Of a stretch of 64,000 bases of DNA, positions 2,930 through 38,159 are shown in pieces (within the stretch, counting starts at the first letter, position 1; each line of letters starts with the position of its first letter). The translations under genes were made by a program, and so were the position numbers. The stretch is taken from IMG/VR virus record IMGVR_UViG_3300041586_000126, positions 1 to 64,000 of that record. One strand, 5' to 3'. A model generated the notes under the pieces. That model did no database searches, was not told where the DNA came from, and was given only the letters and a program-made list of their open reading frames with translations. Source of the DNA: a virus.

Positions 2930-2944
2930 CAATTAATAAATAAA

Positions 2945-3583: not shown

Positions 3584-3589
3584 AAAATT

Positions 3590-4560: not shown

Positions 4561-4633
4561 GCTCATGTGGTGGAATGGTATACACGGCTGTTTTAGAAGC
4601 AGTATTTTGCAGGTTCGAATCCTGCCATGAGTA
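4561..4633 (+). tRNA. tRNA-Leu(TAG) with short variable loop
   Basis: GCTCATG/CATGAGT acceptor, TGGTGGAATGGTATACAC D arm, GCTGT-TT-TAG-AA-GCAGT. Confidence 0.85.
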
Positions 4634-4639
4634 CAAATT

Positions 4640-4937: not shown

Positions 4938-4980
4938 AATTTATTGTGGATAAATAGTTGAAAATTTTTATCCTCAACAT

Positions 4981-5052
4981 GCTCATTTATTTTAATTGGT
5001 AGAATCCCAATCTTGTAAATTGGAGGAAAAAGTTCGAATCTTTTAATGAGCT
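4981..5052 (+). tRNA. tRNA-Thr(TGT)
   Basis: GCTCATT/AATGAGC acceptor, CCAAT-CT-TGT-AA-ATTGG. Confidence 0.85.
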
Positions 5053-5112
5053 CTAAAGTAAACACCCCCTATGGGCAGAGTGATCTTAGGGAGATCAATG
5101 TTTACTTTTAAT

Positions 5113-5185
5113 GCGAGTGTAGCTCAATTGGTAGAGTGCTATCTTTCCACGTTAGAAGTTGGGGGTTCGAACCCCCCCACTCGCT
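5113..5185 (+). tRNA. tRNA-Gly(TCC)
   Basis: GCGAGTG/CACTCGC acceptor, TAGCTCAATTGGTAGAG, TT-TCC-AC loop. Confidence 0.9.
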
Positions 5186-5303
5186 CAAAAGCCCGAAGTA
5201 CAAGGGATCGAAGATAGGTGTTGCCTCTGCTACAAGCACACTCACCTCCAAATCGTAGGTTGGTACAGTTGGTAACTCTGGGAATATTACAAAAGTTACA
5301 AAT

Positions 5304-5375
5304 GCTCCTGTCGACAACTGGCTAAGTCACTACCCTTTCACGGTAGAGTAGAGGGATCGATACCCTCCGGGAGTA
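5304..5375 (+). tRNA. tRNA-Glu(TTC)
   Basis: GCTCCTG/CGGGAGT acceptor, CTACC-CT-TTC-AC-GGTAG. Confidence 0.9.
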
Positions 5376-5380
5376 CAATT

Positions 5381-5453
5381 GGGGATATGGTGAAATTGGC
5401 TATCATAGTAGATTTGCATTCTACTGTTCCGAGTTCGAACCTCGGTTTCTCCA
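5381..5453 (+). tRNA. tRNA-Ala(TGC)
   Basis: GGGGATA acceptor with G3-U70, GTAGA-TT-TGC-AT-TCTAC. Confidence 0.85.
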
Positions 5454-5527
5454 CAATTAGGAGATATCTACCTTAGGTAGGTGTTCTGTCAAGGTTTTTA
5501 AGGTTGAACCAGTAATCAACCTTAACC

Positions 5528-5602
5528 GGTCTATTAGTGAACTGGCTATCATGCTACCCTGTCACGGTAGAGTAGAGGGATCGAAACCTTCATAGACCGC
5601 CA
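5528..5602 (+). tRNA. tRNA-Asp(GTC)
   Basis: GGTCTAT/ATAGACC-GCCA, CTACC-CT-GTC-AC-GGTAG. Confidence 0.9.
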
Positions 5603-5605
5603 AAT

Positions 5606-5676
5606 TGCGTTAAGGTGTAAAGGTTGCATGGGACTCTCATAAGGTCTACGGGGTGGTTCGAATCCACATTACGCAA
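5606..5676 (+). tRNA. tRNA-Met(CAT), possibly initiator-like
   Basis: TGCGT/ACGCA acceptor, GGACT-CT-CAT-AA-GGTCT. Confidence 0.75.
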
Positions 5677-5737
5677 CTAAATAGTTTTATAGGTCGTTCT
5701 GTCCTTGAGTTCTATTTCAAAACTCTAAAAAAGGCAA

Positions 5738-5813
5738 GGTCCCTTAGCTCAGTCTGGTAAGTAGCAACTCGCTCATAACGAGAAGGTCACAGGTTCAAAT
5801 CCTGTAGGGACCA
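5738..5813 (+). tRNA. tRNA(CAT), probably Ile2 (lysidine type)
   Basis: GGTCCCTTAGCTCAG...AGGGACCA resembles bacterial tRNA-Ile2; CTCG-CT-CAT-AA-CGAG. Confidence 0.8.
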
Positions 5814-5928
5814 CAAAAATATTTATCCAATATACTTCTAATTATTTATTATCTTTCCTTGACCCCTGCTTGGGTACCATACTTATGGTTCGTATATTCG
5901 ATTAAATAATTAAAACAAACTAAATATT

Positions 5929-6240: not shown

Positions 6241-6705
6241 ATGGCAAAGTTTCAATCAAGTAAAGTTTATGATGGATACAGCACAGTATTCCGTCAATGG
6301 AGAGCAACAAATACTCACTGTTCATTTATTCACGGTTATGGTGTTTCATTCAAAATATATTTTGAAGGGGAATTAGATGAAAAAAATTGGGTTATGGATT
6401 TTGGAATGGCCAAGCGTGCTAAAACATTAATAGATGGTAGGCAACCCAAGGATTATTTCGATTTTATATTTGACCACACTATGATTATAGCAGAAGATGA
6501 TCCTGAAGTAGAAGCATTTAAGCAAATGGGAGAAGCGGGAGTAGCACAAGTAAGAATAATCCCAGCTACCGGTGCAGAGAAATTTGCTGAATTTATCTTT
6601 AATAAGGTTAACCCCTTCGTATTAGAAGAAACAGATGGTCGAGTTAGGGTTACTAAAGTGAAGTTTATGGAACATGGAAAAAATGCAGCATATTACTGCG
6701 AATAG
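6241..6705 (+). CDS. queD: 6-carboxy-5,6,7,8-tetrahydropterin synthase
   Basis: HCSFIHGY, WVMDFG, FDHT, TGAEKFAE motifs. Confidence 0.9.
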   Translation: MAKFQSSKVYDGYSTVFRQWRATNTHCSFIHGYGVSFKIYFEGELDEKNWVMDFGMAKRAKTLIDGRQPKDYFDFIFDHTMIIAEDDPEVEAFKQMGEAGVAQVRIIPATGAEKFAEFIFNKVNPFVLEETDGRVRVTKVKFMEHGKNAAYYCE

Positions 6706-6737
6706 ATAGGAGGGGTGCATATGTATAATAAAACACC

Positions 6738-7220
6738 ATGCATCCTATGAGAAAATGTAATAAATGTAAAGAATCCTTAGATTATTCTGAATTTGCAAAA
6801 AACTGTTCCCAAATTGATGGGTATGAAAATTATTGTAAATCCTGCAAAAATAAATATAACCAAGCTAAGTATGGAAACAAATACACTAAATTATACCATA
6901 AAAAAGCAGGTTATGGTATTTACAAAATAGAGAATAAGAAAAATGGAGAAATTTATATTGGTAAAGGTTGGCTAAATGAACGTAAAGTCGACCATTTTAC
7001 TAAATTAAAAGCTCAAAGACATTCTAACCAATACTTACAAGAGAGTTATAATAATGTCTCCCACGAATTACTTGAATTCTCAGTTATTGAAATATGTGAA
7101 CCCAATCTTGGATCACTGAAGGAGAGGTATTATATTATAGAAGAATATTTAAAGAATAGCGAAAAATTATTAAACCAACACGTCACTTTAAGATGGCGTA
7201 GTGAAACAAAAACCACTTAA
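6738..7220 (+). CDS. GIY-YIG homing endonuclease with N-terminal Zn ribbon
   Basis: CNKC..CKSC then GIYKIENKKNGEIYIG; sits between queD and queE. Confidence 0.8.
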   Translation: MHPMRKCNKCKESLDYSEFAKNCSQIDGYENYCKSCKNKYNQAKYGNKYTKLYHKKAGYGIYKIENKKNGEIYIGKGWLNERKVDHFTKLKAQRHSNQYLQESYNNVSHELLEFSVIEICEPNLGSLKERYYIIEEYLKNSEKLLNQHVTLRWRSETKTT

Positions 7221-7232
7221 AAAAATCAATAA

Positions 7233-8021
7233 ATGGAAACAAATCAATTAAAACGAATCCCAGATTACGATAAGGTATTACCTATTGTAGAAGTTTACAC
7301 AGCAGTACAGTCAGAAGGGTCTAGAGCAGGATACCCAACAGTAGTTATACGTACAACCGGATGCACTCACAGGTGTTTTTTCCGTGACGGAGGGTGGTGT
7401 GACTCCTGGTATACTTCAATCCACCCCGAAAAAGGTCAATTTACCTTTAATGATATTATTGATATGTACAAGAAAAACCCACACATATCAGAGATGATGC
7501 TAACGGGTGGTTCACCTACACTTCACCCTGCCCTAGTAAATGAATTAACCCACTTTGCCCATGAAAATAATATATTTATTACTATTGAGACTGAAGGAAG
7601 CCACTTCCTCCCCACTGACTATCCTATTAATCTTTTATCTATTAGTCCTAAGTTTTCTAATTCTATCCCAGTTTTAGGAGTAAAAACACCACAAGGGGGA
7701 ATTACAGATGAAAGAATGATTAATCAACATAATAAACTCCGAGTTAATTATGAAGCAATAAAAAAGTCAATAGAATACCATTCAGATTACCACATAAAAC
7801 CAGTATGGAGTGGACAAGACGAGGGTGCCTTAGCTGAAATTTTAGATTTTATTAAAATTATGGAGGTACCTCAAAATAAAGTATGGTTTATGCCTAGTGG
7901 TGATTCAAGAGAAGGGTTATTTAAATCGTATCCTTTAGTATTCAATTGGGTGAGGGATAATGGATACCGTATGACTTGGCGCCCCCACATCATAGCCTTT
8001 GAAGCACAGAGATGCGTGTAG
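7233..8021 (+). CDS. queE: 7-carboxy-7-deazaguanine synthase (radical SAM)
   Basis: QSEG..G.P.V.IRTTGCTHRC...WCDS, LTGGSP, TIETEG, SISPK. Confidence 0.9.
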   Translation: METNQLKRIPDYDKVLPIVEVYTAVQSEGSRAGYPTVVIRTTGCTHRCFFRDGGWCDSWYTSIHPEKGQFTFNDIIDMYKKNPHISEMMLTGGSPTLHPALVNELTHFAHENNIFITIETEGSHFLPTDYPINLLSISPKFSNSIPVLGVKTPQGGITDERMINQHNKLRVNYEAIKKSIEYHSDYHIKPVWSGQDEGALAEILDFIKIMEVPQNKVWFMPSGDSREGLFKSYPLVFNWVRDNGYRMTWRPHIIAFEAQRCV

Positions 8022-8077
8022 ATAACGTTTAACAACGTATGAGAAGTTTGATTCTACCATATGTATAATCAAAACAC

Positions 8078-8731
8078 ATGGTAGAACATATTTATACTTG
8101 TGGACATTGTAAGTCCTCTTTCATCAAAAATTACATAATGTCAAAAGGTAATTGGAGAGATGGAATTCTTTACCCTACTAAAAAATATTGTTCTAAAGAA
8201 TGTAGACAAGCTGAGCGTGCCAAAGAGCATAATTATAAAAATTGTAAAGTTTGTGATATATCCTTTAGAGTAGGACCCAGTAGTAATAATATATTTTGTA
8301 GTAAAAAATGTTATGGTTCAAGAATGAATACACACCCTAAAGAATTTGGAATGGCTGAACGCTCAGCTAAGATGAGGGAAAGTTGGGATGAAAATGCTTG
8401 GAAAAAATCAATCCAAACTAGAAAAGATAATGGAAACATTATTGATTGGGATATAGCTGAATGGAAGCAATATTGGCGTAGATGTAATGATTTAACACGT
8501 AAAATGCGTGTAAAATTACTTGGAGATTGGGATGGTATTGATTATATTGACGGCAAGAATATATTACATAATTTAATGTTACCTATAACACATGCCGAAT
8601 ATCCAACTCTTGACCACGTTATACCTAGAAGTCAAGGATTTAGAGAAGGTTTAACACCTTATGAAATTAGTAATCCAAAGAATTTAAAATGGACTACTAG
8701 AAGAAATAATAGTAAGAAATACAACAAATAA
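8078..8731 (+). CDS. HNH homing endonuclease with CxxC/CSxxC Zn repeats
   Basis: YCSKEC and FCSKKC repeats, TLDHVIPRS...NPKNLKW..RRNN. Confidence 0.8.
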   Translation: MVEHIYTCGHCKSSFIKNYIMSKGNWRDGILYPTKKYCSKECRQAERAKEHNYKNCKVCDISFRVGPSSNNIFCSKKCYGSRMNTHPKEFGMAERSAKMRESWDENAWKKSIQTRKDNGNIIDWDIAEWKQYWRRCNDLTRKMRVKLLGDWDGIDYIDGKNILHNLMLPITHAEYPTLDHVIPRSQGFREGLTPYEISNPKNLKWTTRRNNSKKYNK

Positions 8732-8732
8732 T

Positions 8733-8867
8733 TTGGATAAGCAAGAAGCACTTAATATATTAGGAGAAATAAAAGATAACATCAACATTTGTTGTGCTAT
8801 AACAATGTATCCTGATGAAGTATTAGTTTTAATAGATAAAATAGAAAGTTATATAAATGGAGAATAA
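8733..8867 (+). CDS. Small hypothetical protein (44 aa, TTG start)
   Basis: LDKQEALNILGEIKDNINICCAITMYPDEVLVLIDKIESYINGE*, fills the gap and overlaps the folE start. Confidence 0.45.
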   Translation: MDKQEALNILGEIKDNINICCAITMYPDEVLVLIDKIESYINGE

Positions 8868-9543
8868 ACGTAGAAAAATCCACGAAGAATTAGAAGTGGT
8901 ACAAGCAGGTTTTGCTAATGGTGTTGCTAAAGGTTTCCCATTATCTGAACAATCAAAACAATATATGATTGAGGATGCTACTAAGGCTTATGGTGACTTT
9001 TTAACAGCCTTAAGATGTGATTGGCAGAATGATCCTAATTCAATGGAAACTCCTCGACGCATAGCCAAAAAGTATGTTAATGAGCAGTGGGCAGGTAGGT
9101 ACAATAATCCACCAGCTATCACATCATTCCCTTCTGATGGGTATGACGGGCTTATCACGGAATGTAACATACCTTTAACAAGTATGTGCTCCCACCACCA
9201 CGAATCTATTTTAGGTAGAGTTCATATTTCATATATAGCTGGTATTGACGGAAGGGTAATTGGTTTATCCAAGTTAAATAGATTAGTTGAACATTTTGGA
9301 CGTCGCGGAGCTATTCAAGAACAGCTTACAATGGCTATCCACCAGGCTGTAGATAAAGTATGTGAAGGTAATCAAGGAGTTGCTGTACAAATAGTAGCAA
9401 GTCACCAATGCGTAAGCTGTAGAGGAACCAACCACCAAGGAGCAGCTATGATCACAACCAAGCTATCAGGAAATTATTTTACTAAACCCGAAGTAAGGTT
9501 TGAATTTTTTGATGCTATAAAAAGTGCGGCATTGTTAAAATAA
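8857..9543 (+). CDS. folE: GTP cyclohydrolase I
   Basis: ETPRRIAK, SMCSHHH, IGLSKLNR, IQEQLT, HQCVSCRG. Confidence 0.95.
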   Translation: MENKRRKIHEELEVVQAGFANGVAKGFPLSEQSKQYMIEDATKAYGDFLTALRCDWQNDPNSMETPRRIAKKYVNEQWAGRYNNPPAITSFPSDGYDGLITECNIPLTSMCSHHHESILGRVHISYIAGIDGRVIGLSKLNRLVEHFGRRGAIQEQLTMAIHQAVDKVCEGNQGVAVQIVASHQCVSCRGTNHQGAAMITTKLSGNYFTKPEVRFEFFDAIKSAALLK

Positions 9544-17044: not shown

Positions 17045-17212
17045 ATGAGTAAACAAGAAATTTTTGAAGCAATGGAAGGTCATTTTCATACTTTAGCAGA
17101 AAACAATTCAGGGACTACAAAATCCTCACAACAAAGAGCACGTTCTGCGGCTATGTCAATCAAGAAACTGGTTACAGATTATAAAAAAGCATCTGTAGAA
17201 GAATCTAAATAA
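17045..17212 (+). CDS. Histone H1-like (Hc1-like) small basic protein
   Basis: MSKQEIFEAMEGHFHTLAENNSGTTKSSQQRARSAAMSIKKLVTDYKKASVEESK; RAR..A..IKKL...Y+K.S pattern. Confidence 0.7.
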   Translation: MSKQEIFEAMEGHFHTLAENNSGTTKSSQQRARSAAMSIKKLVTDYKKASVEESK

Positions 17213-29668: not shown

Positions 29669-30034
29669 ATGAAAGAATATAAAGTAGTAGTTACAGAATA
29701 TAGCACAAAATGGTTCAATTTAGAAGGTCAACTTCATAGAGAAGACGGACCAGCTGTTGAATACACAGATGGTGGTAGAGAGTATTATATTAATGATAAG
29801 ATTCATAGAGAAGACGGACCCGCTGTAGAGCATGCAAATGGAGATAAATGGTATTATATTAATGATAAGCTTCACAGAGAAGATGGCCCGGCTGTTGAAT
29901 ATGTAGATGAAGATAAATTATACTTCATTAATGGTAAAAAATTAACCGAAAAAAAATTCAAAAATACAAACAAAACCTGTGAAGGCAAGGTTGTAGAAAT
30001 AGAAGGTGTAAAGTATAAATTAACTAAAATATAA
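29669..30034 (+). CDS. HREDGPA-repeat protein (paralog of 4034-4468)
   Basis: Three HREDGPAVE repeats; same MKEYKV start and C.GKVVEI.GVKYKL end. Confidence 0.85.
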   Translation: MKEYKVVVTEYSTKWFNLEGQLHREDGPAVEYTDGGREYYINDKIHREDGPAVEHANGDKWYYINDKLHREDGPAVEYVDEDKLYFINGKKLTEKKFKNTNKTCEGKVVEIEGVKYKLTKI

Positions 30035-30106
30035 AAGTCTATTAAATATAACTTGGTTGAGCCAAATATTGTTCGTATATTTACACTTAATAAGAAAATA
30101 AAGGTT

Positions 30107-30529
30107 ATGAAAGAACAAAGAGGAAGACCAGCAGAAAAGCCCCCAGTTGTATTAGATAAGTGGGTTCAAACCTTTTATGAGGTACCATCCAAACCTGAAC
30201 TAGGTTATAAGTCTGTTTGGCATTTTGACAATTCTATCAGTTCAAAGGGTGCCTATAAAGTAGAATATACCTTACCTAAGGGACATAGGCCACTTAAAGT
30301 AAAACTTGAAAAGGGAAAAGCATATAGTCAACAACCTGTTGTGATGGTATTTAAGACCTCAGACCGTTTAAACTCTAAAACCAAAATGAAAATTTGGAAC
30401 AACGAGAATATAGATTATATATTATCAACTAGTAATTTAATAGGTATCCCAGCAAAAGCAATTATATTAGATATAGGTGTGGGGCGTAAAATAATAGAGA
30501 TGTATAAACAAAAATATAATTTAACTTAA
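30107..30529 (+). CDS. Hypothetical early protein
   Basis: Start reset to the ATG after the promoter/leader repeat. Confidence 0.7.
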   Translation: MKEQRGRPAEKPPVVLDKWVQTFYEVPSKPELGYKSVWHFDNSISSKGAYKVEYTLPKGHRPLKVKLEKGKAYSQQPVVMVFKTSDRLNSKTKMKIWNNENIDYILSTSNLIGIPAKAIILDIGVGRKIIEMYKQKYNLT

Positions 30530-30565
30530 TTACTATATATTTATAATAAATAAAATAAAATAATA

Positions 30566-31249
30566 ATGGGTAGATATAAATTAACAAATAAATCAGAGGG
30601 AATGAGTAATGACGAATTTTCTAATGCAAAGGAACAAGATAGATTAGATGCTCACCCTGATAGAGATAAAATAATTAAAATGCGAGCTCTACTTAAAAAA
30701 GAAAAAGATGCTAGAGAGAATAATGTTGAAGAAGGTGAAGCTGTGGATTTAGCAATTGAAGCATCACAAAAAAAAGCAGGTATTCGTGAGAATGATATTG
30801 AAGATAATATAGAAAGGCGTATTGAAGACTTATCTCAAGAACCTACAAAACGTAAATTTCTAGATGATTTTTTAGATCTATATAAAGGATTAATAGGTGA
30901 AGATCCCTATTTTGTCAAATCAGTATTTAATTATTTGAATACTGGAATGGATAATCAAAACCAACAAAAAACCATGGGAGAATCATCAGATGGTTATGTA
31001 GAAGAAATTAGCGAAACCGATTCAAATGCCCTAGGTAGTATTGTAAAAATTCTAAGGGATAATCAGATATCAATAAGTGATATTAATGGTTTCTACAAAA
31101 CCCATAAACAGGATATTATAAAAGGAGATATAAATCCTTTTGATGAAGAAGATGTAATGATGAATTATAATGAATACAGTTCAATTAATTCTGAGGATTT
31201 TAGTGACCTAAGAGAACATTTTAGTAGATTCCTAAAACCCTACCAATAA
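30566..31249 (+). CDS. Hypothetical acidic protein (late-type promoter)
   Basis: TATTTATAAT upstream; LREHFSRF C-terminus. Confidence 0.65.
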   Translation: MGRYKLTNKSEGMSNDEFSNAKEQDRLDAHPDRDKIIKMRALLKKEKDARENNVEEGEAVDLAIEASQKKAGIRENDIEDNIERRIEDLSQEPTKRKFLDDFLDLYKGLIGEDPYFVKSVFNYLNTGMDNQNQQKTMGESSDGYVEEISETDSNALGSIVKILRDNQISISDINGFYKTHKQDIIKGDINPFDEEDVMMNYNEYSSINSEDFSDLREHFSRFLKPYQ

Positions 31250-31336
31250 TATATTTTAAAATTATTTAAAAAAGGGTGGGTATCATTAGGATACCCACTA
31301 CTATTTTTGTATATTAACGTATTAAATAAAGGTATA

Positions 31337-31486
31337 ATGAGAAAAGTTAGAGAATATAAAGGTTGTGAATTTGAGTCTCCTATGTTTAGACAAATAATGG
31401 CAGAAAGGGAGAAGGGGTTAAATGGATCTTCAATAATGGATGGTACATTTGAATATAAACCCAAAAGAGGAAAGCATAAAATATAA
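31337..31486 (+). CDS. Small hypothetical protein (49 aa)
   Basis: MRKVREYKGCEFESPMF...; follows the early promoter at 31286. Confidence 0.5.
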   Translation: MRKVREYKGCEFESPMFRQIMAEREKGLNGSSIMDGTFEYKPKRGKHKI

Positions 31487-31505
31487 TCACTTAAATCAAC
31501 ATAAC

Positions 31506-31661
31506 ATGAACCCAGATGAAAGAAAACTAAAATTGGACGAGCTAAGATTAAAAATAACAGCATATAAACTCCAGCAAAACCCACTCTTAGGTAATAATAA
31601 ATATAATATTCAAAAACTACAACAAGAGATAGATAATCTCCCTCCAAAAAATAATATATGA
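31506..31661 (+). CDS. Small hypothetical protein
   Basis: MNPDERKLKL..., coupled to the next gene. Confidence 0.5.
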   Translation: MNPDERKLKLDELRLKITAYKLQQNPLLGNNKYNIQKLQQEIDNLPPKNNI

Positions 31662-31867
31662 ACTATAACATAATATACAAAGACCAAAACGCATATAGAA
31701 TAGTAGACGAAATATCTATTTCTAACTTCCAAAATAAGGATGGAAGCATTCATCAACAGGTCTTAGGGATGTATGTTCACGACTTAAGATGTGATAGAGT
31801 ATTTCAAAAAGATAATAAGTTTTTGATATGCTCCCTAATCCCCGATGTTATATATGAAGAAGTCTAA
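31658..31867 (+). CDS. Hypothetical protein
   Basis: ORF track. Confidence 0.6.
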   Translation: MNYNIIYKDQNAYRIVDEISISNFQNKDGSIHQQVLGMYVHDLRCDRVFQKDNKFLICSLIPDVIYEEV

Positions 31868-32195
31868 CACTTGTAGTTGGTGTCACAAATCAACAGGATT
31901 ACCAGAGGTTTTTGCTTCTCAAGTCCCCATATTAGAATGGTTAGAGGAAAAAATAGACTTATATTGTAAATATAAAGATATTAGCCGAGATGAATTGTGG
32001 GGGGAAAATAGTGATTGGAGTCAATTAAATTTAGGTAAAAATTGGGAATCGGAGTTATTAGCTTATGATGAATTAGCCAATACAATCTCCAGAAGGGTTA
32101 TATGTAAAGAATGCCTAATTCAAGACGATGCCCTATTTAAAAAATACTATATAATGTTAGATGATGACGAGAATATAGAGTTTGAAGAACCTTAA
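31845..32195 (+). CDS. Hypothetical Zn-binding protein
   Basis: CSWC...CKEC. Confidence 0.6.
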   Translation: MLYMKKSNTCSWCHKSTGLPEVFASQVPILEWLEEKIDLYCKYKDISRDELWGENSDWSQLNLGKNWESELLAYDELANTISRRVICKECLIQDDALFKKYYIMLDDDENIEFEEP

Positions 32196-32877
32196 TATGA
32201 TAAATAAAAGTGTTTTGATATGGGCTGGCTACTATGATGATAGGTGGAACGCAACAAATTGGATTGAAGGTGGGATTAATGATAGCGAGTATTCTATAAT
32301 TAAATTAGCCTATAAACTCCAAAGTAAAGGTTATGATGTAACAGTAGCTGGTAATGTTAAAAGTGAACTGTTATGGGGTATCAAATGGGTTAATGAAGAT
32401 ATACTTTTATCAAATCGGGGTCCTAGAGGTTTAAATGAAGCATTCGATTTAAGAGTAAAAGATCACTATAACATACTAATAGGATGTAATTATATACACT
32501 TTATAAGACATCTAGAAGATGTAAATATCTCGTTTGATAAGGCATACTTTTGGATGCATCAAGATGGGTATTACCCTTGGTATAAAGGAAATGAATTAAA
32601 TCAATGTAAAGATTATTTTAAACACCCCAAACTAAAAGCTATAATAGGGATAAGTAAAACCCACGCTAAAACACTTAAAAAAAGTGCAAAAAATATATTC
32701 CACTACACACCCCTAGATTCTAATAAATACATACACTTTATTACACATCCACTTGATTTAAAGGATAATACGGAATCACAAACCCCACCATTAATGAACG
32801 AAACACTACATATGTGGTTAGAAAAATCAAATTGGGATTTGACCATGAATGAATGGATTAGTATGTTTGAGAATTAA
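32182..32877 (+). CDS. Glycosyltransferase-like protein (N-terminal GT-B domain, apparently shortened)
   Basis: GGI..SE..II.LA..L...GYDVTV.G, FWMH, W.....EW. Confidence 0.55.
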   Translation: MKNLNMINKSVLIWAGYYDDRWNATNWIEGGINDSEYSIIKLAYKLQSKGYDVTVAGNVKSELLWGIKWVNEDILLSNRGPRGLNEAFDLRVKDHYNILIGCNYIHFIRHLEDVNISFDKAYFWMHQDGYYPWYKGNELNQCKDYFKHPKLKAIIGISKTHAKTLKKSAKNIFHYTPLDSNKYIHFITHPLDLKDNTESQTPPLMNETLHMWLEKSNWDLTMNEWISMFEN

Positions 32878-32952
32878 AAATAGTAATGCATGTCATATTT
32901 GGCTCCCCGCAATAGGGTTCGTATATTTACACATAAGTTAATAAATATTATC

Positions 32953-33084
32953 ATGAGCGGAAATACAAAGTTTTTTAATAGGGTGCTTTGCATACAAAAT
33001 TATTATGATATATATAATGAAGTTTATTTTTATAGGTTTTGGGTGCTTGGATTTTACTTTGATACTGACAAAAATTCTTTATAA
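32953..33084 (+). CDS. Small hypothetical protein ending in the first TAAC core of the repeat array
   Basis: MSGNTKFF...DKNSL*; early promoter at 32899. Confidence 0.5.
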   Translation: MSGNTKFFNRVLCIQNYYDIYNEVYFYRFWVLGFYFDTDKNSL

Positions 33085-33128
33085 CGGTTTGGGTATGGTT
33101 AGATTTTTAACGGATTAAATATAAAAAT

Positions 33129-33266
33129 ATGAATGAAGAAGCAGAATTTGCAGTAGAAATACTGAAAGAATACGCAAAACAAAACCAGGTATTACCAAGA
33201 AGTACTTGTGACTTATCTAAATTAGAGGAATGGCTAATTATAGAGCTACTTAGAGTTAAAAATTAA
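33129..33266 (+). CDS. Small cassette protein (45 aa)
   Basis: MNEEAEFAVEILKEYAKQNQVLPRSTCDLSKLEEWLIIELLRVKN*. Confidence 0.6.
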   Translation: MNEEAEFAVEILKEYAKQNQVLPRSTCDLSKLEEWLIIELLRVKN

Positions 33267-33392
33267 CTATACCCGTTGTTGTGGGTACGTTGTGCGAACA
33301 TAATTGACATCACTTAGATAATCATAGTGATAGAATGATACTAAAGCATTGTGCCTAACAAATTAGAATATGAATAGTAAAAATTACGGCTT

Positions 33393-33536
33393 ATGGATCA
33401 ATTACCTTTAGACTTTAACTTGGTTATGTTATTATATGACCTTGATGAATTATTGACATTATTAGAAACCGATACTAAAAAATGGCAATGGTTAATAGAT
33501 GAACTGAACAAACAATTAAAAGAACAGATTGAGTAA
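33393..33536 (+). CDS. Small cassette protein (47 aa)
   Basis: MDQLPLDFNLVMLLYDLDELLTLLETDTKKWQWLIDELNKQLKEQIE*. Confidence 0.5.
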   Translation: MDQLPLDFNLVMLLYDLDELLTLLETDTKKWQWLIDELNKQLKEQIE

Positions 33537-33677
33537 TTTTTATTATTTATATTCTGTGTTGTGCGGTCTTTTTAATGTCGACACAACGCATTGTATAAGA
33601 AATGTTGATGTTAGCACCGATGTTCATTTGAAATACTAAATGGCTTTTTATTGGAATGGAATTAGTTAGAAATTAAG

Positions 33678-33932
33678 ATGAAAACAGAAGGAAATATGAT
33701 TACGGATTGGTTAGACCAAAACCGAAACCCAGAAATAGACCGTTTTATTGAAAAAAACCTTGCCATTACTGAAAAAATTCGTTTGGCATTAGCAGAAAAA
33801 GAGTGGAATTGGTATGGTAATGAGGTGAGGGAGTTAGAAGATATAAAAAGAATAAATAAAGAGGTTATGGGAAAAATGACTTTTACAAATCAATTCTTCA
33901 AGAACATTTTAAACACAACCCACATAAAATAA
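33678..33932 (+). CDS. Hypothetical protein resembling the N-terminus of an XRE/HigA-like regulator, without HTH
   Basis: PEIDRFIEKNLAITEKIRLALAEKEW then diverges. Confidence 0.55.
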   Translation: MKTEGNMITDWLDQNRNPEIDRFIEKNLAITEKIRLALAEKEWNWYGNEVRELEDIKRINKEVMGKMTFTNQFFKNILNTTHIK

Positions 33933-33988
33933 TACGTATATATTTAACTTAATATGGCTAATATTAGTAATATTGGAATTAGAACATT

Positions 33989-34174
33989 ATGGAGAAGAAT
34001 AGAAAAGAAATCATAGCAAAATTAAATATACTTGCTAATGGTAATAAAAGCCAATGGTTTGCAGATGCCACTTGGAGAGCAGAAAATAGTGTATGGTTGA
34101 TAAAATTACAAGCCACCACTATAAAAATTTTAAGGGCATTAAGAAAGAATAATACACACACAAAACAACATTAA
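33989..34174 (+). CDS. Hypothetical protein resembling the N-terminus of an XRE/HigA-like regulator, without HTH
   Basis: SQWFADATWRAENSVWL..ATTIKILRALRK then stops. Confidence 0.55.
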   Translation: MEKNRKEIIAKLNILANGNKSQWFADATWRAENSVWLIKLQATTIKILRALRKNNTHTKQH

Positions 34175-34203
34175 TAATTAATAATTAAAATTCGGTAAAA
34201 CAC

Positions 34204-34350
34204 ATGAGTAAATCAAGCCCAAAACAACGGTTGACACAATTAGTAGAATGGATGTCTACATTGAAACCACAACGTAGTAGACCAATTAAAAACGAGGATA
34301 CTAAACAACCACCAACACGTAGTTATAATGTTAGAATAAAAAATATGTAA
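34204..34350 (+). CDS. Small hypothetical protein (48 aa)
   Basis: MSKSSPKQRLTQLVEWMSTL..., TAATG-coupled to the next ORF. Confidence 0.5.
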   Translation: MSKSSPKQRLTQLVEWMSTLKPQRSRPIKNEDTKQPPTRSYNVRIKNM

Positions 34351-34754
34351 TGGAAAGTAATCTTAAAGTATGGAATGAAGTATTTACTATATTGGCTTGG
34401 AATTGTAAAGCGGATAAATCTGGTAAAATGATTTTGGATAAGGGTATTTACTACAACGATGTTTTATCAAAGTATTGCATTACTGAAAGAACTAGCGAGA
34501 TAAGTGAAGTAGAAATATATAAAAAAGTATATGCAACAACAACACTAAAAGATCTGGCAATGGTAATCCTGGAGATAAGTCGAGATGGGATAATATCAGA
34601 TAACAACAAACAATACGATGCATTAGTAATGGTACATCAGTGCATCAACTTCAGTCTAGCTATACCGAATACATTAATGCGTGGGTATGGAATACGAGCA
34701 CAGGCAACGATGTTGGGTGTACAAAATGATATATTAAAAGTAATAAGTATGTAG
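34350..34754 (+). CDS. Hypothetical protein
   Basis: ORF; C-terminus NTLMRGYGIRAQA. Confidence 0.6.
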   Translation: MESNLKVWNEVFTILAWNCKADKSGKMILDKGIYYNDVLSKYCITERTSEISEVEIYKKVYATTTLKDLAMVILEISRDGIISDNNKQYDALVMVHQCINFSLAIPNTLMRGYGIRAQATMLGVQNDILKVISM

Positions 34755-35145
34755 AGCATGTAGGTGTACGTAAGGGTACGTAAGGGTGTCCAACGATTCA
34801 AAGTGTGGGTAACGGTGGTGGATTGGTGGTGGTGGGAGTGTAAATTGATATGACATGTGGAAAGCAGTAGGGATGGTATGTGGAGTGGTGGAGGCGTGTC
34901 GCTAACCCATTCACACACCACACAACCACTCTTCGAAATCTCTAAAAATATATACGAACCACACATGAACAATGCATTATCCACAACCTACCCACAATAA
35001 AATTGAAGTATACTCTATTGCTACATGTGAACATTCTTTTTATTCACAATGTTTGGCGCCTCCAAATGTGAATAATGCAATACCCGCTACTTCGCGCGAG
35101 ACCGAATGTTTCATGTCCTGTTGTTAAATGCTTATGCGATAGGAC
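34755..35145. other. Non-coding G/T-rich then C/A-rich segment (possible terminal-repeat boundary)
   Basis: Abrupt compositional skew switch near 34900; no credible ORF. Confidence 0.4.
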
Positions 35146-35199
35146 TTGGAGGCACCGGCAATTGTTCGTATATTTACACCTAATAAAAAAATAAAGGTT

Positions 35200-35688
35200 A
35201 TGAGCAAGTCAAGCGAAATGTATAGTAAGTATGGAGTGGAGAAAGCAACAGCAATGCTATGTAAATCCGAAGATAATGATTGCGTTGTTAGAGCGGTTAT
35301 GAATGCATTTCAGGTTGATTATTTAGATGCACATAATTTTTGTGAAAACAAATTGCTACGCCAATACAAGATGGGAACATACGTTGATAGGTATTTACCT
35401 TACATCCACACCGCATTTAATAAGTCTGTTGTGAGACTGGGTGTTACACGTGGACTTAAGCATAAGGTTAAAGTATACAACAGCATTTTTGATAGAACTG
35501 CTACTAGTACTCAGATTAAACAAATACCAATGAAGGTAGGGGAGTTTGTTAAGGCAAACCCAACCGGGAATTTTTTAATCACAGTAAGAGGTCATGCGAT
35601 ATCGCTCGTAAACGGTGTAATATCAGGTAACAGGGGCGATGGATTGAAAGTAAATAGAGAAATAATGTCAGCATATAAAATTAACTAA
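35200..35688 (+). CDS. Hypothetical early protein
   Basis: NDCVVRA...GHA....G motif; start after the promoter/leader repeat. Confidence 0.7.
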   Translation: MSKSSEMYSKYGVEKATAMLCKSEDNDCVVRAVMNAFQVDYLDAHNFCENKLLRQYKMGTYVDRYLPYIHTAFNKSVVRLGVTRGLKHKVKVYNSIFDRTATSTQIKQIPMKVGEFVKANPTGNFLITVRGHAISLVNGVISGNRGDGLKVNREIMSAYKIN

Positions 35689-35700
35689 ATAAATAATATT

Positions 35701-35841
35701 ATGATACATGAATTTAACAAGTGGATGCAACGGATTGGAAATGTTTATTACTCCGATAATAATAGAATGGCCGAGGCGTTTATACGTTTAGAGCAAACAC
35801 CATTACCGCATGAAAATATTATTAAGAATAAATGCAAATAA
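35701..35841 (+). CDS. Small hypothetical protein (46 aa)
   Basis: MIHEFNKWMQRIGNVYYSDN... Confidence 0.45.
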   Translation: MIHEFNKWMQRIGNVYYSDNNRMAEAFIRLEQTPLPHENIIKNKCK

Positions 35842-35906
35842 ACTTGGTTGAGCCAAATGATGTTCGTATATTTACACCTAATAAGAAAATAAAGGTATAA
35901 TAATAC

Positions 35907-36177
35907 AATTCGTAAGCGTATCCAAGCGGGCAGTAGGGGATAACGAATTAAAATAAATTGTATAATAAGCTAGAAATAGTCAACTTAAGATAAGGCTAGA
36001 GTAAAGTACGAAAGAATACCCGAAAGGGGAATAACGAAGCTCAGCGGTACCAATCAAACGCCTCCACGTGGCGGTACTGGAAAATGGTTATGAACCTCGG
36101 CCGAGGAAAGTAACCAAAACTAAGTTTGAATAATGGTAACTGAAGAATGTTGGTTCGATCCCAACACACCCCCACCA
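35907..36177 (+). ncRNA. Putative structured ncRNA ending in a T-loop hairpin and ACCA
   Basis: Multiple hairpins with GAAA tetraloops (GCTA-GAAA-TAGT, CCC-GAAA-GGG), CGGTAC/GTACTG, TGGTTA/TAACCA; transcribed from the promoter at 35843, which lacks an ATG. Confidence 0.55.
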
Positions 36178-36181
36178 TAAG

Positions 36182-36294
36182 GTGAAGCATTTAGGATACC
36201 GGATGCGTAAGTTATAACAGATCTGCAGGTCTAGAAGTGGTTTGGTTAAAGTCGTACAGGTACAGACACAAGGTTCGAATCCTTGCACTTCACA
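36182..36294 (+). ncRNA. tRNA-like RNA (acceptor and T arm, non-canonical centre)
   Basis: GTGAAG/CTTCAC stem and CAAGG-TTCGAAT-CCTTG; ~112 nt, no standard D or anticodon arm. Confidence 0.55.
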
Positions 36295-36415
36295 AATATA
36301 AACCCCCTATATTCGTAGTCGCGAGTAGGGATGCTTCACAATGACGTGAAACCAAGCCGTGAGGGACTTGGTGGGTATAGTTCGTATATTTACACCTAAT
36401 AAAAAAATAAAAGTT

Positions 36416-36772
36416 ATGAAATTCAAACAATTAAATACATCTCAAGATATGTTAAGTCTTAACCCATTACCAACACCATTATCGTTTAAGAAGATAGCAG
36501 ATACTATGGATGAAGGAGATGTAATGTCGTTTAGATATAATTCCACTGACTATGAGATGGAAATATTTCTAGTATCTAGTAATAAAAAATATATGCATGT
36601 AAAAACCCTACATAAAATAAATTCATTAAGAGGAACTATGAATGTGGGTGATATCAGCAAAACATATATTAAAATGTTTACACACAACATGATGGGCATT
36701 AAATCGAAAGCTAAAATACCGGTGGGCGAGATTACCGATGTTACGATAACAATAAGAAATCTAAGGTGGTAA
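36416..36772 (+). CDS. Hypothetical early protein
   Basis: Start reset after the promoter/leader repeat. Confidence 0.65.
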   Translation: MKFKQLNTSQDMLSLNPLPTPLSFKKIADTMDEGDVMSFRYNSTDYEMEIFLVSSNKKYMHVKTLHKINSLRGTMNVGDISKTYIKMFTHNMMGIKSKAKIPVGEITDVTITIRNLRW

Positions 36773-36774
36773 TG

Positions 36775-37128
36775 CATGCGGATGGACGTGGGTACTGAGG
36801 CGGTACTTACGCCTTATGTATTACGGGGGTGTAACGTACTGGGACGGTTATATCGTGGGCGGGCGGTACGGCGTATGCTGTGTATATCCATGCGCGCTGC
36901 TGTCCGTATATAACGTGGCGTGCGTAGAAAATGGTGGATGGTGACAAATCTATCTCGTACAACTTTACACCCCCGGGAAGTATATACAAATATACTACAC
37001 TCCCCACATTCTAAACCGCGCATTAGCGTTTGGTAAAAACCCAAAACCCAATCAATTCAGAATACCCAAAAAATCTCTCTCAAAAAATTTTTACGTAAGG
37101 AGAAACGGCCGTATCACCTTGCGTATAC
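36775..37128. other. GC-elevated non-coding segment with a G-to-C skew switch (candidate genome terminus/pac region)
   Basis: G-rich 36775-36945, C/A-rich 36960-37080, AAAAAATTTTT at ~37082; convergent transcription. Confidence 0.45.
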
Positions 37129-37446
37129 TTATTTTTTCAATTGGGTTATAGATGTAAAACCATTCCAAAGTGGTTGTTTTGAAATTTCCATTAAATCTAC
37201 TTCTATATCTTCACTATCCAAAGTTATTTCAGAGATGGTTCCACCTTTTGTTTTATATTTTATCAGATATTTAGGTAGGATATTAGAATTATCAACCCAT
37301 TTCCAACCTAAAAGCAACCTACAAAATAGTCGATTAATGGCATTTGGTTTTGTACCTATATAAAATTCTAATTTCACACCTTCTCTATTACCTATTACAT
37401 AACCCCCAGCGTGTGTGTGTATATTTCTTGCTACAAATCCTAACAT
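37129..37446 (-). CDS. Hypothetical protein
   Basis: First of three minus-strand ORFs. Confidence 0.6.
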   Translation of the reverse strand: MLGFVARNIHTHAGGYVIGNREGVKLEFYIGTKPNAINRLFCRLLLGWKWVDNSNILPKYLIKYKTKGGTISEITLDSEDIEVDLMEISKQPLWNGFTSITQLKK

Positions 37447-37466
37447 ATTATATTGTGGTTTATTTA

Positions 37467-37856
37467 TTACTTTAAACGTGATAATGTGAAATTTATCGAC
37501 GTGATTTGTTCAAAAATGTTTTCAAACGCTGTTGAATTCATTTTATCCGTAGCATTCACGGCATTTTTTTGATTATCCAAGAGTGTGTGGATGTGACTAA
37601 TTTTTTCTTCTAACGAGTGCATAATTTTAGCATCATTTTCCTCATATTTCTCAATAGAATGCTCGATATCCTCCAGTCTACTTATGATGTCAACGATATG
37701 TTTTTCTACATCGTTAAATCCCGTAGATGACGTAGAATTACCATTGTATATGTTGGTTTTTGAACCGAAAAACTTATAGTAAACGATAATAGCTAAGTTT
37801 ACCTCTAAAATAAATAAAACTGTTAGTAAAATGGCTGTGTAAGTGATAGTAATCAT
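37467..37856 (-). CDS. Membrane-anchored coiled-coil protein
   Basis: N-terminal hydrophobic helix plus heptad region. Confidence 0.6.
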   Translation of the reverse strand: MITITYTAILLTVLFILEVNLAIIVYYKFFGSKTNIYNGNSTSSTGFNDVEKHIVDIISRLEDIEHSIEKYEENDAKIMHSLEEKISHIHTLLDNQKNAVNATDKMNSTAFENIFEQITSINFTLSRLK

Positions 37857-37868
37857 AATTTTGTTGTT

Positions 37869-38159
37869 TTAAATTGTTTGGTTAATAATGTCGTGCTGTG
37901 TTAATTCTTTAATATAAACTCCTTTATTGAAAAATGCTATTGTAGGGTAGTATTTAATTACACCTGGTAAAAATTTGCAACTCTTAACGTGTTTTAGGGA
38001 ATCCACTATTATTATTGTGTGAATATTTTCTAATTTACGTAAATGTGGTAGGAGTTTTCTACAAGCACCACACCCATCGGATTTAAACATCACTATTAGG
38101 TTATCCATTCCCACGTAATGTTCTAAATCATCACCCTGTAATTCTATTATATCATTCAT
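37869..38159 (-). CDS. Thioredoxin-like protein
   Basis: VMF.SDGCGACR...YPTIAFF.KG. Confidence 0.75.
   Translation of the reverse strand: MNDIIELQGDDLEHYVGMDNLIVMFKSDGCGACRKLLPHLRKLENIHTIIIVDSLKHVKSCKFLPGVIKYYPTIAFFNKGVYIKELTQHDIINQTI

Follow-up and report, generated by a model that had tools for sequence, protein, structure and literature searches.

Small phage genes enclosed by complementary arms: an exchangeable cassette format in phages of marine and saline waters

Why would a phage enclose each of two neighbouring small genes between long inverted repeats? The question is raised by a 64,000-nt stretch of viral DNA (positions 1 to 64,000 of IMG/VR record IMGVR_UViG_3300041586_000126, hereafter the window), for which an earlier note had described an attC-like array of inverted repeats with genes inside the hairpins. 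The genome that carries both cassette units (G000) comprises 87,192 nt and 127 ORFs at 54% completeness; its PolB is of the T4 gp43 type, at approximately 30% identity, and the window phage is, to judge from its sequence, a distant T4-like myovirus. The stretch is present in 19 sequencing runs labelled salt lake metagenome, and the search that found them returned DNA runs only and zero RNA runs. Among cultured phages, the sole match to the 3-kb region is 144 nt of Flavobacterium phage 11b. Our analysis supports the idea of a cassette with the ORF in the loop, and clamped small-gene cassettes of this kind mark, we believe, an undescribed, exchangeable gene-cassette format in phages: no description of a clamp-around-ORF architecture was found in the literature searched, which covers few subscription-journal papers.

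The transcription unit in question opens with a promoter-like element on the plus strand (32899..32953; core GTTCGTATATTTACAC, approximately 20 nt before an ATG), which presumably resembles the Bacteroidetes -33/-7 promoter type. The promoter-like element previously proposed as a promoter, near 32899-32950, is real, in that blastn finds five near-identical copies of the element in the window, the other copies lying at approximately 30068-30110, 35161-35203, 35861-35896 and 36376-36421, with 29 invariant columns in the alignment (A3). A consensus scan for promoters returned 23 promoter-like sites against 26.8 expected, none of them above shuffles. Behind the element lies the first small ORF of the transcription unit (32954..33084, plus strand, 43 aa from the ATG), which stops, as had been noticed, in the first TAAC, its TAA falling within the TATAAC that opens unit 1; phage 11b holds an unannotated homologue of this ORF, likewise ending in TATAACG. 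The cassette units themselves lack this phage's repeated promoter element. The type 1 left arm, described below, does hold a TAGATTTT box 22 nt before the AUG, with the nearest TTG 23 nt upstream; a promoter inside the left arm was rejected as a general explanation, type 2 having no comparable box; for type 1 it may hold.

All strings quoted in the earlier note were found at their coordinates, and the arms said to enclose a 45-aa ORF (unit 1) and a 47-aa ORF (unit 2) are both real, being inverted repeats of 21-30 nt. The left arm of unit 1 (33080..33111, plus strand) consists of an outer AUAAC (33081-33085), an unpaired GGUUU and a core (33091-33111); we call it type 1, and homologous arms occur in loci L020, L024, L030, L090, L125 and L133. 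It is followed by cargo 1, the 45-aa ORF (33129..33266, plus strand), whose stop codon (33264-33266) lies within the right arm (33255..33283, plus strand; core 33255-33274, end GTTGTTGTG). Cargo 1 has homologues in seven protein clusters (62-91% identity, 22 invariant columns in alignment A2) and no match in PHROG. As plus-strand RNA, 33091-33111 and 33255-33274 form 20 pairs, 2 G.U among them, with one bulged A. In relatives, one extra A shifts the reading frame, so that the arm is translated as ..KKLTI, and the arm DNA is still kept. The linker between the two units (33284..33352, plus strand) is a degenerate linker hairpin (GTTGTGCGAACATAATTGACATCAC..) followed by ..ATTGTGCCTAAC leading into unit 2, and in the MFE structure it folds as a hairpin that is long but imperfect.

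Unit 2 begins with a left arm of type 2 (33353..33387, plus strand; ..TAAC-AAATTAGAATATGAATAGTAAAAATTAC), near-identical copies of which stand upstream of unrelated ORFs in L017, L049, L053, L055, L060 and other loci. Its cargo 2, the 47-aa ORF (33393..33536, plus strand), starts with an AUG 5 nt past the left arm, and its stop codon (33534-33536) lies within the right arm (33533..33563, plus strand; end GTGTTGTG); it has homologues in seven clusters (66-96% identity, 24 invariant columns in alignment A1). Over 30 nt (33358-33387 and 33533-33562) the arms are 83% complementary. The 5' half of the linker hairpin (33556..33587, plus strand; GTGTTGTGCGGTC-UUUUUAAU-GUCGACACAAC) overlaps the end of the right arm, and the linker's self-complementarity is borne out, GTTGTG..CACAAC at 33558-33587 folding as a hairpin. 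What had been taken for a third left end, CACAAC, is indeed present at 33582-33587, but it does not begin a third complete unit: it belongs to the linker hairpin, as its 3' half, after which a left-arm-like remnant (AACGCATTGTATAAGAAATGTTGATGTTAG) is kept in the window within a variable segment (33577..33640, plus strand). The term array does not fit either, as the genome holds two units, and a loose pattern run over the 87-kb genome finds one real copy of the hairpin motif, the only one beyond chance (15 loose matches against 12.6 expected in shuffles). Other high-scoring brackets, at 34878-35000, 36416-36772 and 17045-17212, are irregular pairings of a different kind and were not assigned to the cassette family. 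Rfam, searched over 30000-38000 at E<=1, gave nothing relevant and nothing in the units; outside the units, sub-threshold hits were an L20 leader (27.4 bits, cut-off 58.7) and an HDV-like ribozyme (24.2 bits, cut-off 44).

Could such pairing be fortuitous? Flank pairing was scored by duplex energy for all 127 ORFs, between the 58 nt upstream and the 67 nt that surround and follow the stop codon. The two units come first and third, and among 3000 mismatched flank pairs 0 and 2, respectively, reach their scores. Folded as RNA, the 561-nt region has a z of -3.9, with 0 of 100 shuffles folding equally well. In the predicted fold, a canonical unit forms a bracket with a hairpin next to it; its stem is built of 12-14 bp, a 2x2 loop and 9 bp, plus an outer helix of 6-9 bp, with a 3-nt bulge in the left arm on the coding strand. 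The right arm begins no later than the stop codon, and four cargo families of type 1 units end in an arm-encoded ..KKLTI. At the start codon the two types differ: type 1 units, such as unit 1 of the window, leave approximately 17-20 unpaired nt between stem and AUG, whereas the type 2 stem ends 5-9 nt before it, and in L049 and L055 UUAUG pairs with CGUAA just before the stop.

An alignment of 31 units was made after dropping L047, which had a wrong start, and nine more (eight without an AACG match and one of odd length); L095 and L139 are misplaced in it at the left end. In this alignment, 86% of the core-helix cells hold a pair. Sliding the partner by 1-3 columns leaves 33-51% paired, a figure that refers to the whole structure with all its helices. 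Nine of the 14 core pairs change on both sides (columns 28/334, for example, hold GC in 18 units, UA in 8, AU in 5 and are unpaired in none), and the covariation score is reached by 0 of 500 shuffles. What is more, left and right arms from the same unit pair more strongly (mean -15.7 kcal/mol) than mismatched arms do (-9.1 kcal/mol), and 0 of 10000 permutations reach the own-pair mean; several left arms that had been mis-set by a wrong ATG (e.g., L055, L077, L084) were kept in this test, and they lower the own-pair mean. Part of the covariation could stem from ancestral hairpins of differing sequence and not from compensatory change after ORF capture.

On which strand does the pairing matter? 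In blind DNA alignments of the arms of 16 units, with 348 Watson-Crick positions, 34 of the transition mismatches are G.U on the plus strand and 1 on the minus strand; one G.U is retained in 28 of the 31 units, and in 32 of 32 arm pairs, which had been pre-selected on sense energy, the sense strand gives a more stable duplex than the antisense strand. In other words, where an attC site would be expected to fold on the bottom strand, it is the coding strand that folds here. The alignments show that arm complementarity is maintained on the coding strand, and it is very probable that this sense-strand pairing is under selection. We also consider it likely that the pairing acts as RNA and not as ssDNA: because the folding strand is the coding strand, a reading at the level of RNA explains the strand asymmetry more simply. 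Folding of top-strand ssDNA is also compatible with such an asymmetry.

The cassette idea had been made to depend on similar units existing elsewhere, and they do. Altogether, the family hairpin is present at 74 loci from viruses and metagenomes, and their 67 cargo ORFs, unrelated small ORFs, fall into 33 clusters, giving at least 33 cargo families. These loci were mostly ascertained through the hairpin, with the U-run as part of the search pattern; 7 of 125 loci failed a stricter pattern, 12 had less than 150 nt upstream, and approximately 30 of the first 55 viral matches to a loose hairpin pattern, lacking family flanks and looking like chance, were left out of the counts. Ascertainment by an 18-nt left-arm word instead yielded 27 distinct loci, of which only 12 were units; the remaining 15 carry the word in unrelated sequence. 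The shared layout is [..ATTG-N5-]AAC-G, left arm, small ORFan, right arm, GTGTTGT.., a U-rich loop and ..ACAAC, with a unit size of approximately 200-270 nt and a near-invariant linker of 31 nt. The linker hairpin consensus, GTGTTGTATGTCTTTTTTAATTGCATACAAC, is identical in most family loci, its loop being TTTTAATTG; where its stems covary, GTT..AAC and the loop TTTTAAT(T)G persist, the loop across at least six different stems. That the arms would differ in sequence and share their ends is likewise confirmed, with AAC on the left and GTT at the start of the linker nearly invariant and the rest covarying. In 12 of 36 left ends, the stop of the upstream gene is the TAA of TAAC. The cargo proteins measure 27-68 aa, 7 of the 33 families being TM-like and 26 not hydrophobic, and none of the families matches a PHROG with known function.

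The phages that carry units are unrelated, range from approximately 30 kb to more than 87 kb, and hold 1-2 units per genome (one linker hairpin per record in G001-G005). The family is widespread in phages from marine and saline waters, salt-lake metagenomes included. A blastn search of 50,697 phage records with the canonical right arm plus hairpin (67 nt) gave zero matches, and its low-complexity filter may mask one; phage 11b does hold a related unit, around gene PHG11b_6, with a U-run after the right arm and the 5' half, and the fact that this phage is cultured makes experiments feasible. No host reservoir is seen, because the canonical linker hairpin, as a 26-nt pattern, has 0 matches in 185,579 prokaryote species genomes. 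The type 2 right-arm 21-mer has a single match in the same set, which we reject as chance, in repeated coding DNA of a Bacteroidia MAG.

Do the units also move? The earlier note had asked for a comparison of breakpoints across relatives, and those of gain, loss and exchange do coincide with the AAC/GTT ends. Units that are near-identical, at 97-100% over 208-234 nt, sit in unrelated flanks, the homology between them extending from the left AACG to the last AAC of the hairpin. Pairs with the same cargo (L053/L072, 99% over 225 nt; L089/L114, 100% over 234 nt; L075/L137, 100% over 208 nt; L024/L109, 99% over 228 nt) begin between -4 and +14 from the left-end AACG, a motif that was located by script and is off in some loci, and end 0 to +2 from the end of the hairpin. 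More than one downstream context is found in 7 of 31 cargo families. L006 and L009 have only the unit in common with the whole 87-kb genome, and L007 only the ORF of cargo 2, as a homologue without arms. By blastn, the window diverges from L001 inside the linker hairpin, and at the variable segment relatives hold 382-393 other bases with a 97-aa ORF; contigs of run X3 show the joint as 33563>33641 with 393 letters between. Contigs of four runs give joints 33102>33261, 33115>33258 and 33121>33258, with sides of only 21-25 nt, which we read as arms kept around other or unknown content, nothing more. In the unit copy of run X6, the flanks extend the pairing with different letters (GGTTGCTAAC / GTTAGCAACC), which points to selection on pairing beyond the unit boundary. 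Taken as a whole, the existence of the family and its exchange as cassettes is highly probable. Homology boundaries at conserved ends fit homologous and site-specific recombination alike, and for this reason cannot separate the two; we give a modest preference to exchange via general homology over a dedicated enzyme.

What might the clamp do? In the explanation that we propose, the arms would pair, in the early polycistronic mRNA, into a long-distance stem of 25-32 bp that closes each ORF, start region and stop codon included, in a loop of its own, with the linker hairpin stacking next to the stem. Such a clamp would most likely be a device for RNA processing, stability and insulation, namely a site of the kind that rRNA precursors and 23S IVS elements offer to a double-strand-specific nuclease of the RNase III type, the host being assumed to supply the enzyme; processing could then yield a context-independent, end-protected mini-mRNA for each portable ORFan. 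An RNase III-type processing stem takes about two turns or more of dsRNA, and the predicted stem, formed by distant complementary flanks, is long enough for this. No RNase III gene was found among the 44 window ORFs scanned against Pfam. As a specific role, the RNase III-type clamp is a tentative assignment that we would put clearly below an even chance. The second most likely role would be gating of translation, given that the type 2 stem can pair the AUG itself. At the same time, the conserved arms and the 31-nt linker could provide short identity between otherwise unrelated phages, whose general recombination would swap whole units with no dedicated integrase, as for the PeSL cassettes discussed below. 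We hold this whole package, an mRNA clamp around each ORFan plus PeSL-like swapping via conserved ends, to be slightly better than an even bet. An argument against it is that the invariance of AAC and GTT beside covarying stems, together with the kept loop TTTTAAT(T)G, suggests sequence-specific recognition. Such recognition is required neither by plain homologous recombination nor by a generic dsRNA nuclease.

The principal rival places the function in DNA. According to it, the folded top strand is a site like attC or the ends of IS200/IS605 elements, and a putative enzyme of phage or host would move the unit as a cassette after cutting at its AAC/GTT core. An attC site is laid out as R-box, bulge, long arm pair and variable centre, and the R-box-like AAC/GTT, the unpaired 3-nt bulge, the long arm pair and the variable centre of the units follow the same order; AAC and GTT stay fixed as the stems covary, both unit boundaries stand at ..AAC|, folding is strand-specific as in ssDNA systems, and the upstream stops at TAAC described above look as if units had landed at a fixed short target. 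Also in its favour, cargo-less hairpins gave 0 matches in viral contigs for each of two arm types, a search by exact patterns that would miss diverged forms. In attC, the core sites are R'' = RYYYAAC and R' = GTTRRRY, the hairpin is short (about 57-141 nt) and lies downstream of the cassette ORF, and the bottom strand folds, with extrahelical bases setting polarity. The units do resemble it in their AAC...GTT ends, the unpaired offset between outer and inner helix, cassette-wise exchange and single-strand-specific folding, and recognition would be via structure rather than sequence. However, the proposed attC membership fails on the consensus, as 3 of 31 units have RYYYAAC and none of the 31 has GTTRRRY (GTTGTAT being usual there), and the span from AAC to GTTGT is 180-267 nt (median 204) with the ORF inside the hairpin; moreover, it is the coding strand that folds, which for an mRNA needs no further assumption, and the units are found in lytic-type phage contigs only. 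The absence of an integrase noted earlier extends to three unit-bearing records, G000 (54% complete), G003 (98%) and G005 (85%), in which PF00589 has 0 matches at E<=1, with 14 of 14 controls positive, and the Y1 transposase PF01797 equally has 0 matches at E<=1. IS200/IS605 elements have strand-specific hairpin ends and boundaries beside a short fixed word, and the units are like them, and like PATE/REP elements, in having strand-specific hairpin ends and boundaries beside ..AAC|; they differ in having a local hairpin only at the right end, no Y1 transposase found, 1-2 copies per genome instead of many, and a canonical hairpin found in none of the 185,579 species genomes. The pairing that continues past the unit boundary in the X6 copy speaks against this reading as well, and we consider it unlikely. 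Its boldest form, to which we would give little weight, is that lytic phages infecting aquatic hosts of the Bacteroidota type may have their own integron-like system of cassettes, with ORFans in a folded single-strand site that is excised and inserted at the AAC/GTT core by a putative enzyme, neither IntI nor Y1 transposase, recognising the TTTTAAT(T)G loop. If true, structure-defined recombination sites would gain a new class, in which the loop contains the gene.

Other rivals keep the pairing in RNA or treat the arms as mobile ends. The stem could be a translation gate or pulse timer, closing once the right arm is transcribed and stopping initiation as in hok and aapA mRNAs, a precedent given in PMC6733600, so that the protein is made briefly or only after processing. 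The short distance from type 2 stem to AUG, with the start codon itself paired in L049 and L055, and the small cargo with its TM-like families are consistent with this, but the unpaired nucleotides before the AUG in type 1 units mean that start-site occlusion is not universal, and most cargo families are not hydrophobic; as the main function it is improbable. A U-run directly after the extended stem could instead mean a split intrinsic terminator or attenuator, in which the extended stem is followed by UCUUUUUUAAUU within 2-5 nt and transcription ends or is attenuated unless ribosomes on the cargo part the arms. In the window (33569-33573), the canonical linker and phage 11b alike, a U-run does come after the right arm and 5' half, and the stop codon lies 12-30 nt before it, so that a terminating ribosome would presumably cover the right arm. 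That said, its constancy in a set ascertained through the hairpin is circular, since the U-run belonged to the search pattern; unit 1 of the window and the X6 copy lack it, the terminator consensus scan finds none here on the plus strand (a single terminator-like site is on the minus strand), and downstream genes of the same operon need read-through. We regard this reading as quite unlikely. Finally, the arms could be terminal inverted repeats of a MITE- or MPME-like element, bound by a transposase acting in trans. Inverted repeats of 21-30 nt do flank a very small ORF, discrete units do appear in new contexts, and ultra-small mobile elements are known in mycobacteriophages, according to PMC3029335; against this, the right arm is not terminal, the unit continuing through the hairpin, no target-site duplication was present at the boundaries inspected, the same arms hold different cargo (33 clusters), G.U-only mismatches are unexpected for protein-bound double-stranded repeats, and the units are not multi-copy. 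Such an element is very improbable indeed.

The proposed RNA clamp with exchange at conserved ends bears on a general problem. Namely, small ORFans of early regions make up most of the phage "dark matter", and their acquisition, movement and expression are poorly understood. The format described here is a compact and recognisable packaging for them, approximately 200-270 nt long and made of clamp arms that covary and a 31-nt linker that hardly varies, whose combined signature of sequence and structure can be used to find and delimit ORFan cassettes in viromes. It would also show how portable genes can be insulated or clamped at the RNA level in nature, in hosts without Shine-Dalgarno-led initiation, as is the case in Bacteroidota. 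In addition, it offers a tractable test of whether cassettes flow among lytic phages by plain homology, as proposed for PeSLs, or through a structure-specific enzyme.

How do the units compare with systems already known? [quoted passage not shown] As there, small ORFans of a T4-like phage are flanked by intergenic motifs that are short and conserved, the insertions, deletions and replacements that distinguish close relatives have their ends in these motifs, even within a stem-loop, and no dedicated recombinase would be involved. PeSLs, as these sources present them, are direct repeats made of a sigma70-type early promoter and a terminator stem-loop, whereas our units are an inverted, covarying arm pair that encloses the ORF; their hairpin has its U-run in the loop and no U tail, the phage's repeated promoter lies elsewhere, and the family spans unrelated phages of approximately 30 kb to more than 87 kb. 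In architecture, the units recall the 23S rRNA IVS with its S23p ORF, which, in PMC4990558, has a stem of approximately 28 bp formed by terminal inverted repeats, an ORF in the loop and RNase III cleavage, and is regarded as a selfish element; in both cases a stem with a mismatch and a bulge closes the ORF-holding loop. The IVS belongs to bacterial rRNA helices and has one cargo family, whereas the units belong to phage mRNA operons and have at least 33. Finally, in small type I toxin mRNAs such as hok and aapA, a 5'-3' long-distance interaction controls translation and stability (PMC6733600), and the units resemble them in that predicted pairing of leader and 3' end, supported by covariation, encloses a small ORF. 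They differ from the toxin mRNAs in that no antisense RNA is known for them, that only 7 of 33 cargo families look membrane-active, and that their arms are portable and common to unrelated ORFs.

All repeat strings quoted in the earlier note are present in the window as it placed them, and two arm-bracketed units are confirmed. In unit 1, positions 33091-33111 pair with 33255-33274, giving as + strand RNA 20 pairs, 2 being G.U, and a single bulged A, and enclosing a 45-aa ORF (cargo 1); in unit 2, a 47-aa ORF (cargo 2) is enclosed by the pairing of 33358-33387 with 33533-33562 (30 nt, 83% complementary), and a linker hairpin, GTTGTGCGGTC..GTCGACACAAC, follows at 33558-33587. When upstream flanks were scored against downstream flanks, the two units ranked first and third among all 127 ORFs of the genome, and their scores were reached by 0 and 2 of 3000 mismatched flank pairs. 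Both ORFs are real genes: seven protein clusters are homologous to each of them, and the alignments have 22 invariant columns for cargo 1 and 24 for cargo 2.

As judged from sequence, units 1 and 2 belong to a wider family, the majority of whose loci were ascertained through the hairpin. Namely, a loose hairpin pattern gave 55 viral loci, approximately 25 of them with common conserved flanks, a stricter 26-nt pattern gave 70 metagenome loci, and a regular expression matched 118 of these 125, of which 12 were too short upstream. The 74 loci with the family hairpin and enough upstream sequence answer the earlier note's question of whether similar units exist elsewhere. Their cargo comprises 67 callable ORFs of 27-68 aa in 33 unrelated clusters, seven of which have the look of single-pass membrane peptides and none of which matches a PHROG of known function. 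The layout is constant: AAC-G, three bulged nt, a left arm in which TATG/TATA and TTAG are conserved (in two sequence classes, unit 1 being type 1 and unit 2 type 2), a short leader, the ORF, a right arm starting at the stop codon or earlier, and GTGTTGT, which doubles as the 5' half of a hairpin with a U-rich loop and a 3' half terminating in ACAAC. That AAC is in some loci followed at once by the next left arm, and a hairpin half is present directly upstream of 7/39 units. The literature searched, most subscription journals being outside its scope, yielded no description of such a bracketed-ORF architecture. A cultured system suited to testing the family is Flavobacterium phage 11b, a 144-nt stretch of which is the only match to cultured-phage DNA. 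At 1507-1640 this phage has an unannotated 43-aa ORF, a homologue of the window ORF 32954-33084 that likewise ends TATAACG, and at 1690-2000 its annotated next gene, PHG11b_6, is bracketed by a 13-bp long-range stem, then a hairpin with UUUUAAUU.

Alignments indicate that selection maintains the pairing of the arms and that it acts on the coding strand. Among 31 aligned units, 86% of core-helix cells are paired, while sliding the partners by one to three columns leaves 33-51% paired over the whole structure (all helices); both-side changes occur at 9 of the 14 core pairs and the covariation score was reached by none of 500 shuffles, the cell counts in the covariation tables being inflated by relatedness among units. 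Arms bind their own partners at -15.7 kcal/mol versus -9.1 kcal/mol for mismatched ones, with 0/10000 permutations as good. Moreover, arm alignments that took no account of pair type contain 34 transition mismatches that are G.U on the + strand and one that is G.U on the - strand, and one G.U position is kept in 28 of the 31 units. This asymmetry is naturally given by mRNA, and top-strand ssDNA could also give it; neither a cruciform in double-stranded DNA, nor an inverted repeat bound by protein, nor bottom-strand folding would.

The units behave as cassettes: they are discrete, occur in new contexts and keep constant ends around unrelated cargo, which bears out the cassette with an ORF in its loop proposed in the earlier note. 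In particular, two loci of ~6 kb each (L006 and L009), compared with all 87 kb of the genome, match it only at window 33358-33576 and 33094-33271, precisely units 2 and 1, and a further locus (L007) has only the cargo-2 ORF, without arms. Same-cargo loci with different neighbours are 97-100% identical across 208-234 nt, the homology beginning a few bases from the left AACG and stopping 0-2 bases past the hairpin's last C, which places exchange boundaries near the AAC/GTT ends, as had been anticipated, a pattern to be expected under homologous and site-specific exchange alike. Of the cargo families, 7/31 are seen in more than one downstream context, one of them in five. In the closest relative of the window (L001, ~98% identity), 382 extra bases carrying a 97-aa ORF replace 33577-33640, with the left breakpoint within the linker hairpin, and a contig from X3, a salt lake metagenome run, carries the same variant. 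An arm-encoded C-terminal tail, ..KKLTI, is common to several type 1 cargo families, and many type 2 families have a C-terminal ..(E)RK; exchange junctions are accordingly located within the arms as well. Separately, contigs of runs X3 and X6 skip 723 nt and join the leader of unit 1 (..AATATAAAAATATG, 33135) to an internal ATG of an 84-aa ORF (33855-33859), a deletion variant via a short word common to the two start codons.

The source is a single viral record of 87,192 nt, 54% complete according to CheckV, the window being its first 64 kb; the + strand carries nearly all genes, and the GC content is ~31%. Among the window's products are a family B DNA polymerase whose nearest matches are of the T4 gp43 type (~30% identity), a clamp loader, GroEL/GroES, ligase, baseplate proteins and 17 tRNAs, and we read the phage, from its genes, as a distant T4-like myovirus. 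The tRNA genes cluster at 890-5814, a stretch that also holds an HNH endonuclease gene (3074-3580), and genes for a 6-pyruvoyl-tetrahydropterin synthase (QueD-like), a radical SAM enzyme and GTP cyclohydrolase I are grouped at 6241-9540, the gene set expected for 7-deazaguanine synthesis, which may serve DNA modification. A 231-aa ORF at 32182-32877, without a Pfam or PHROG match, aligns solely with the N-terminal ~195 residues of a protein of 370 aa in the related locus L002 (41% identity), and is a truncated or else a shortened form. The stretch 34760-35130, GC-richer, lacking a convincing ORF and strongly self-complementary (~34813 with ~35006, predicted duplex -38 kcal/mol), matches no Rfam family and may be a structured non-coding RNA; a weak Rfam match at 36046-36111, to an HDV-like ribozyme, falls below threshold (24.2 bits versus a gathering score of 44, E = 0.36) and is probably due to chance.

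A promoter-like element of ~45 nt, with the core GTTCGTATATTTACAC and possibly akin to the Bacteroidetes -33/-7 promoter type, occurs in five copies, at 30068-30110, 32911-32947 (~32899-32950), 35161-35203, 35861-35896 and 36376-36421; an ATG follows ~20 nt downstream of the core, and small stem-loops lie 5' of some copies. Relatives differ by segments gained or lost between copies, as in the ~750 extra nt of L001 near 30044-30113 and the joint 35203>35851 in runs X2 and X3. By analogy with the promoter-early stem-loop (PeSL) cassettes of T4-type phages, genuine PeSL-type shuffling seems to take place next to the bracketed units.

What might the arms do? Their sense-strand complementarity is, across the units compared, maintained, and an early transcript would start at the promoter-like element at ~32899-32950, the paired arms closing each ORF into a loop. 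Gating of translation by a long-distance stem, as described for hok and aapA mRNAs (PMC6733600), fits type 2 units only, type 1 units having ~17-20 nt free ahead of the AUG. A terminator role for the extended stem is suggested by the U-run 3' of it, a feature in part built into the hairpin search pattern. The 23-25 bp interrupted helix and 6-9 bp outer helix would form a putative substrate for double-strand-specific RNases, which cut helices of such kind, RNase III having a length requirement. The nearest documented architecture is the 23S rRNA intervening sequence (PMC4990558), with a 28-bp stem of terminal inverted repeats and an ORF in the loop, excised by RNase III. Given this likeness and the type of substrate, we favour a processing, stability and insulation clamp, which would free a portable ORFan from dependence on its neighbours. 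Cassette exchange probably makes use of the conserved arms and 31-nt linker via general recombination of the phage, a route documented for PeSL motifs of T4-type phages (PMC2839356).

That said, certain sequence constancies are not explained by a clamp with homologous exchange, and because of them we keep a structure-specific DNA mechanism acting on the units, unlikely as we consider it. Namely, the AAC and GTT triplets are fixed while the hairpin stems covary. When units are ascertained by the left-arm word, the linker hairpin is present in 12/12, with at least six different stems; its loop motif TTTTAAT(T)G (window 33569-33577) recurs whichever of these stems carries it, and is present in phage 11b as well. 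ATTG stands ~5 nt 5' of the left AAC even in non-inherited flanks, even inside the upstream gene's last codons. Against attC, PF00589 (tyrosine recombinase) and PF01797 (the Y1 transposase of IS200/IS605 elements) lack a match both here and in two further phage records that carry units (98% and 85% complete), and the canonical linker hairpin is absent among 185,579 species genomes. Yet the units mirror the integron attC layout in their AAC/GTT box, unpaired offset, inner arm pair and variable centre. Membership in the attC class is not supported: unlike attC sites, which are hairpins of ~57-141 nt that fold on the bottom strand, the units fit RYYYAAC at 3/31 left ends and GTTRRRY at 0/31, span 180-267 nt with a gene inside, and, by their G.U pairs, fold on the coding strand.
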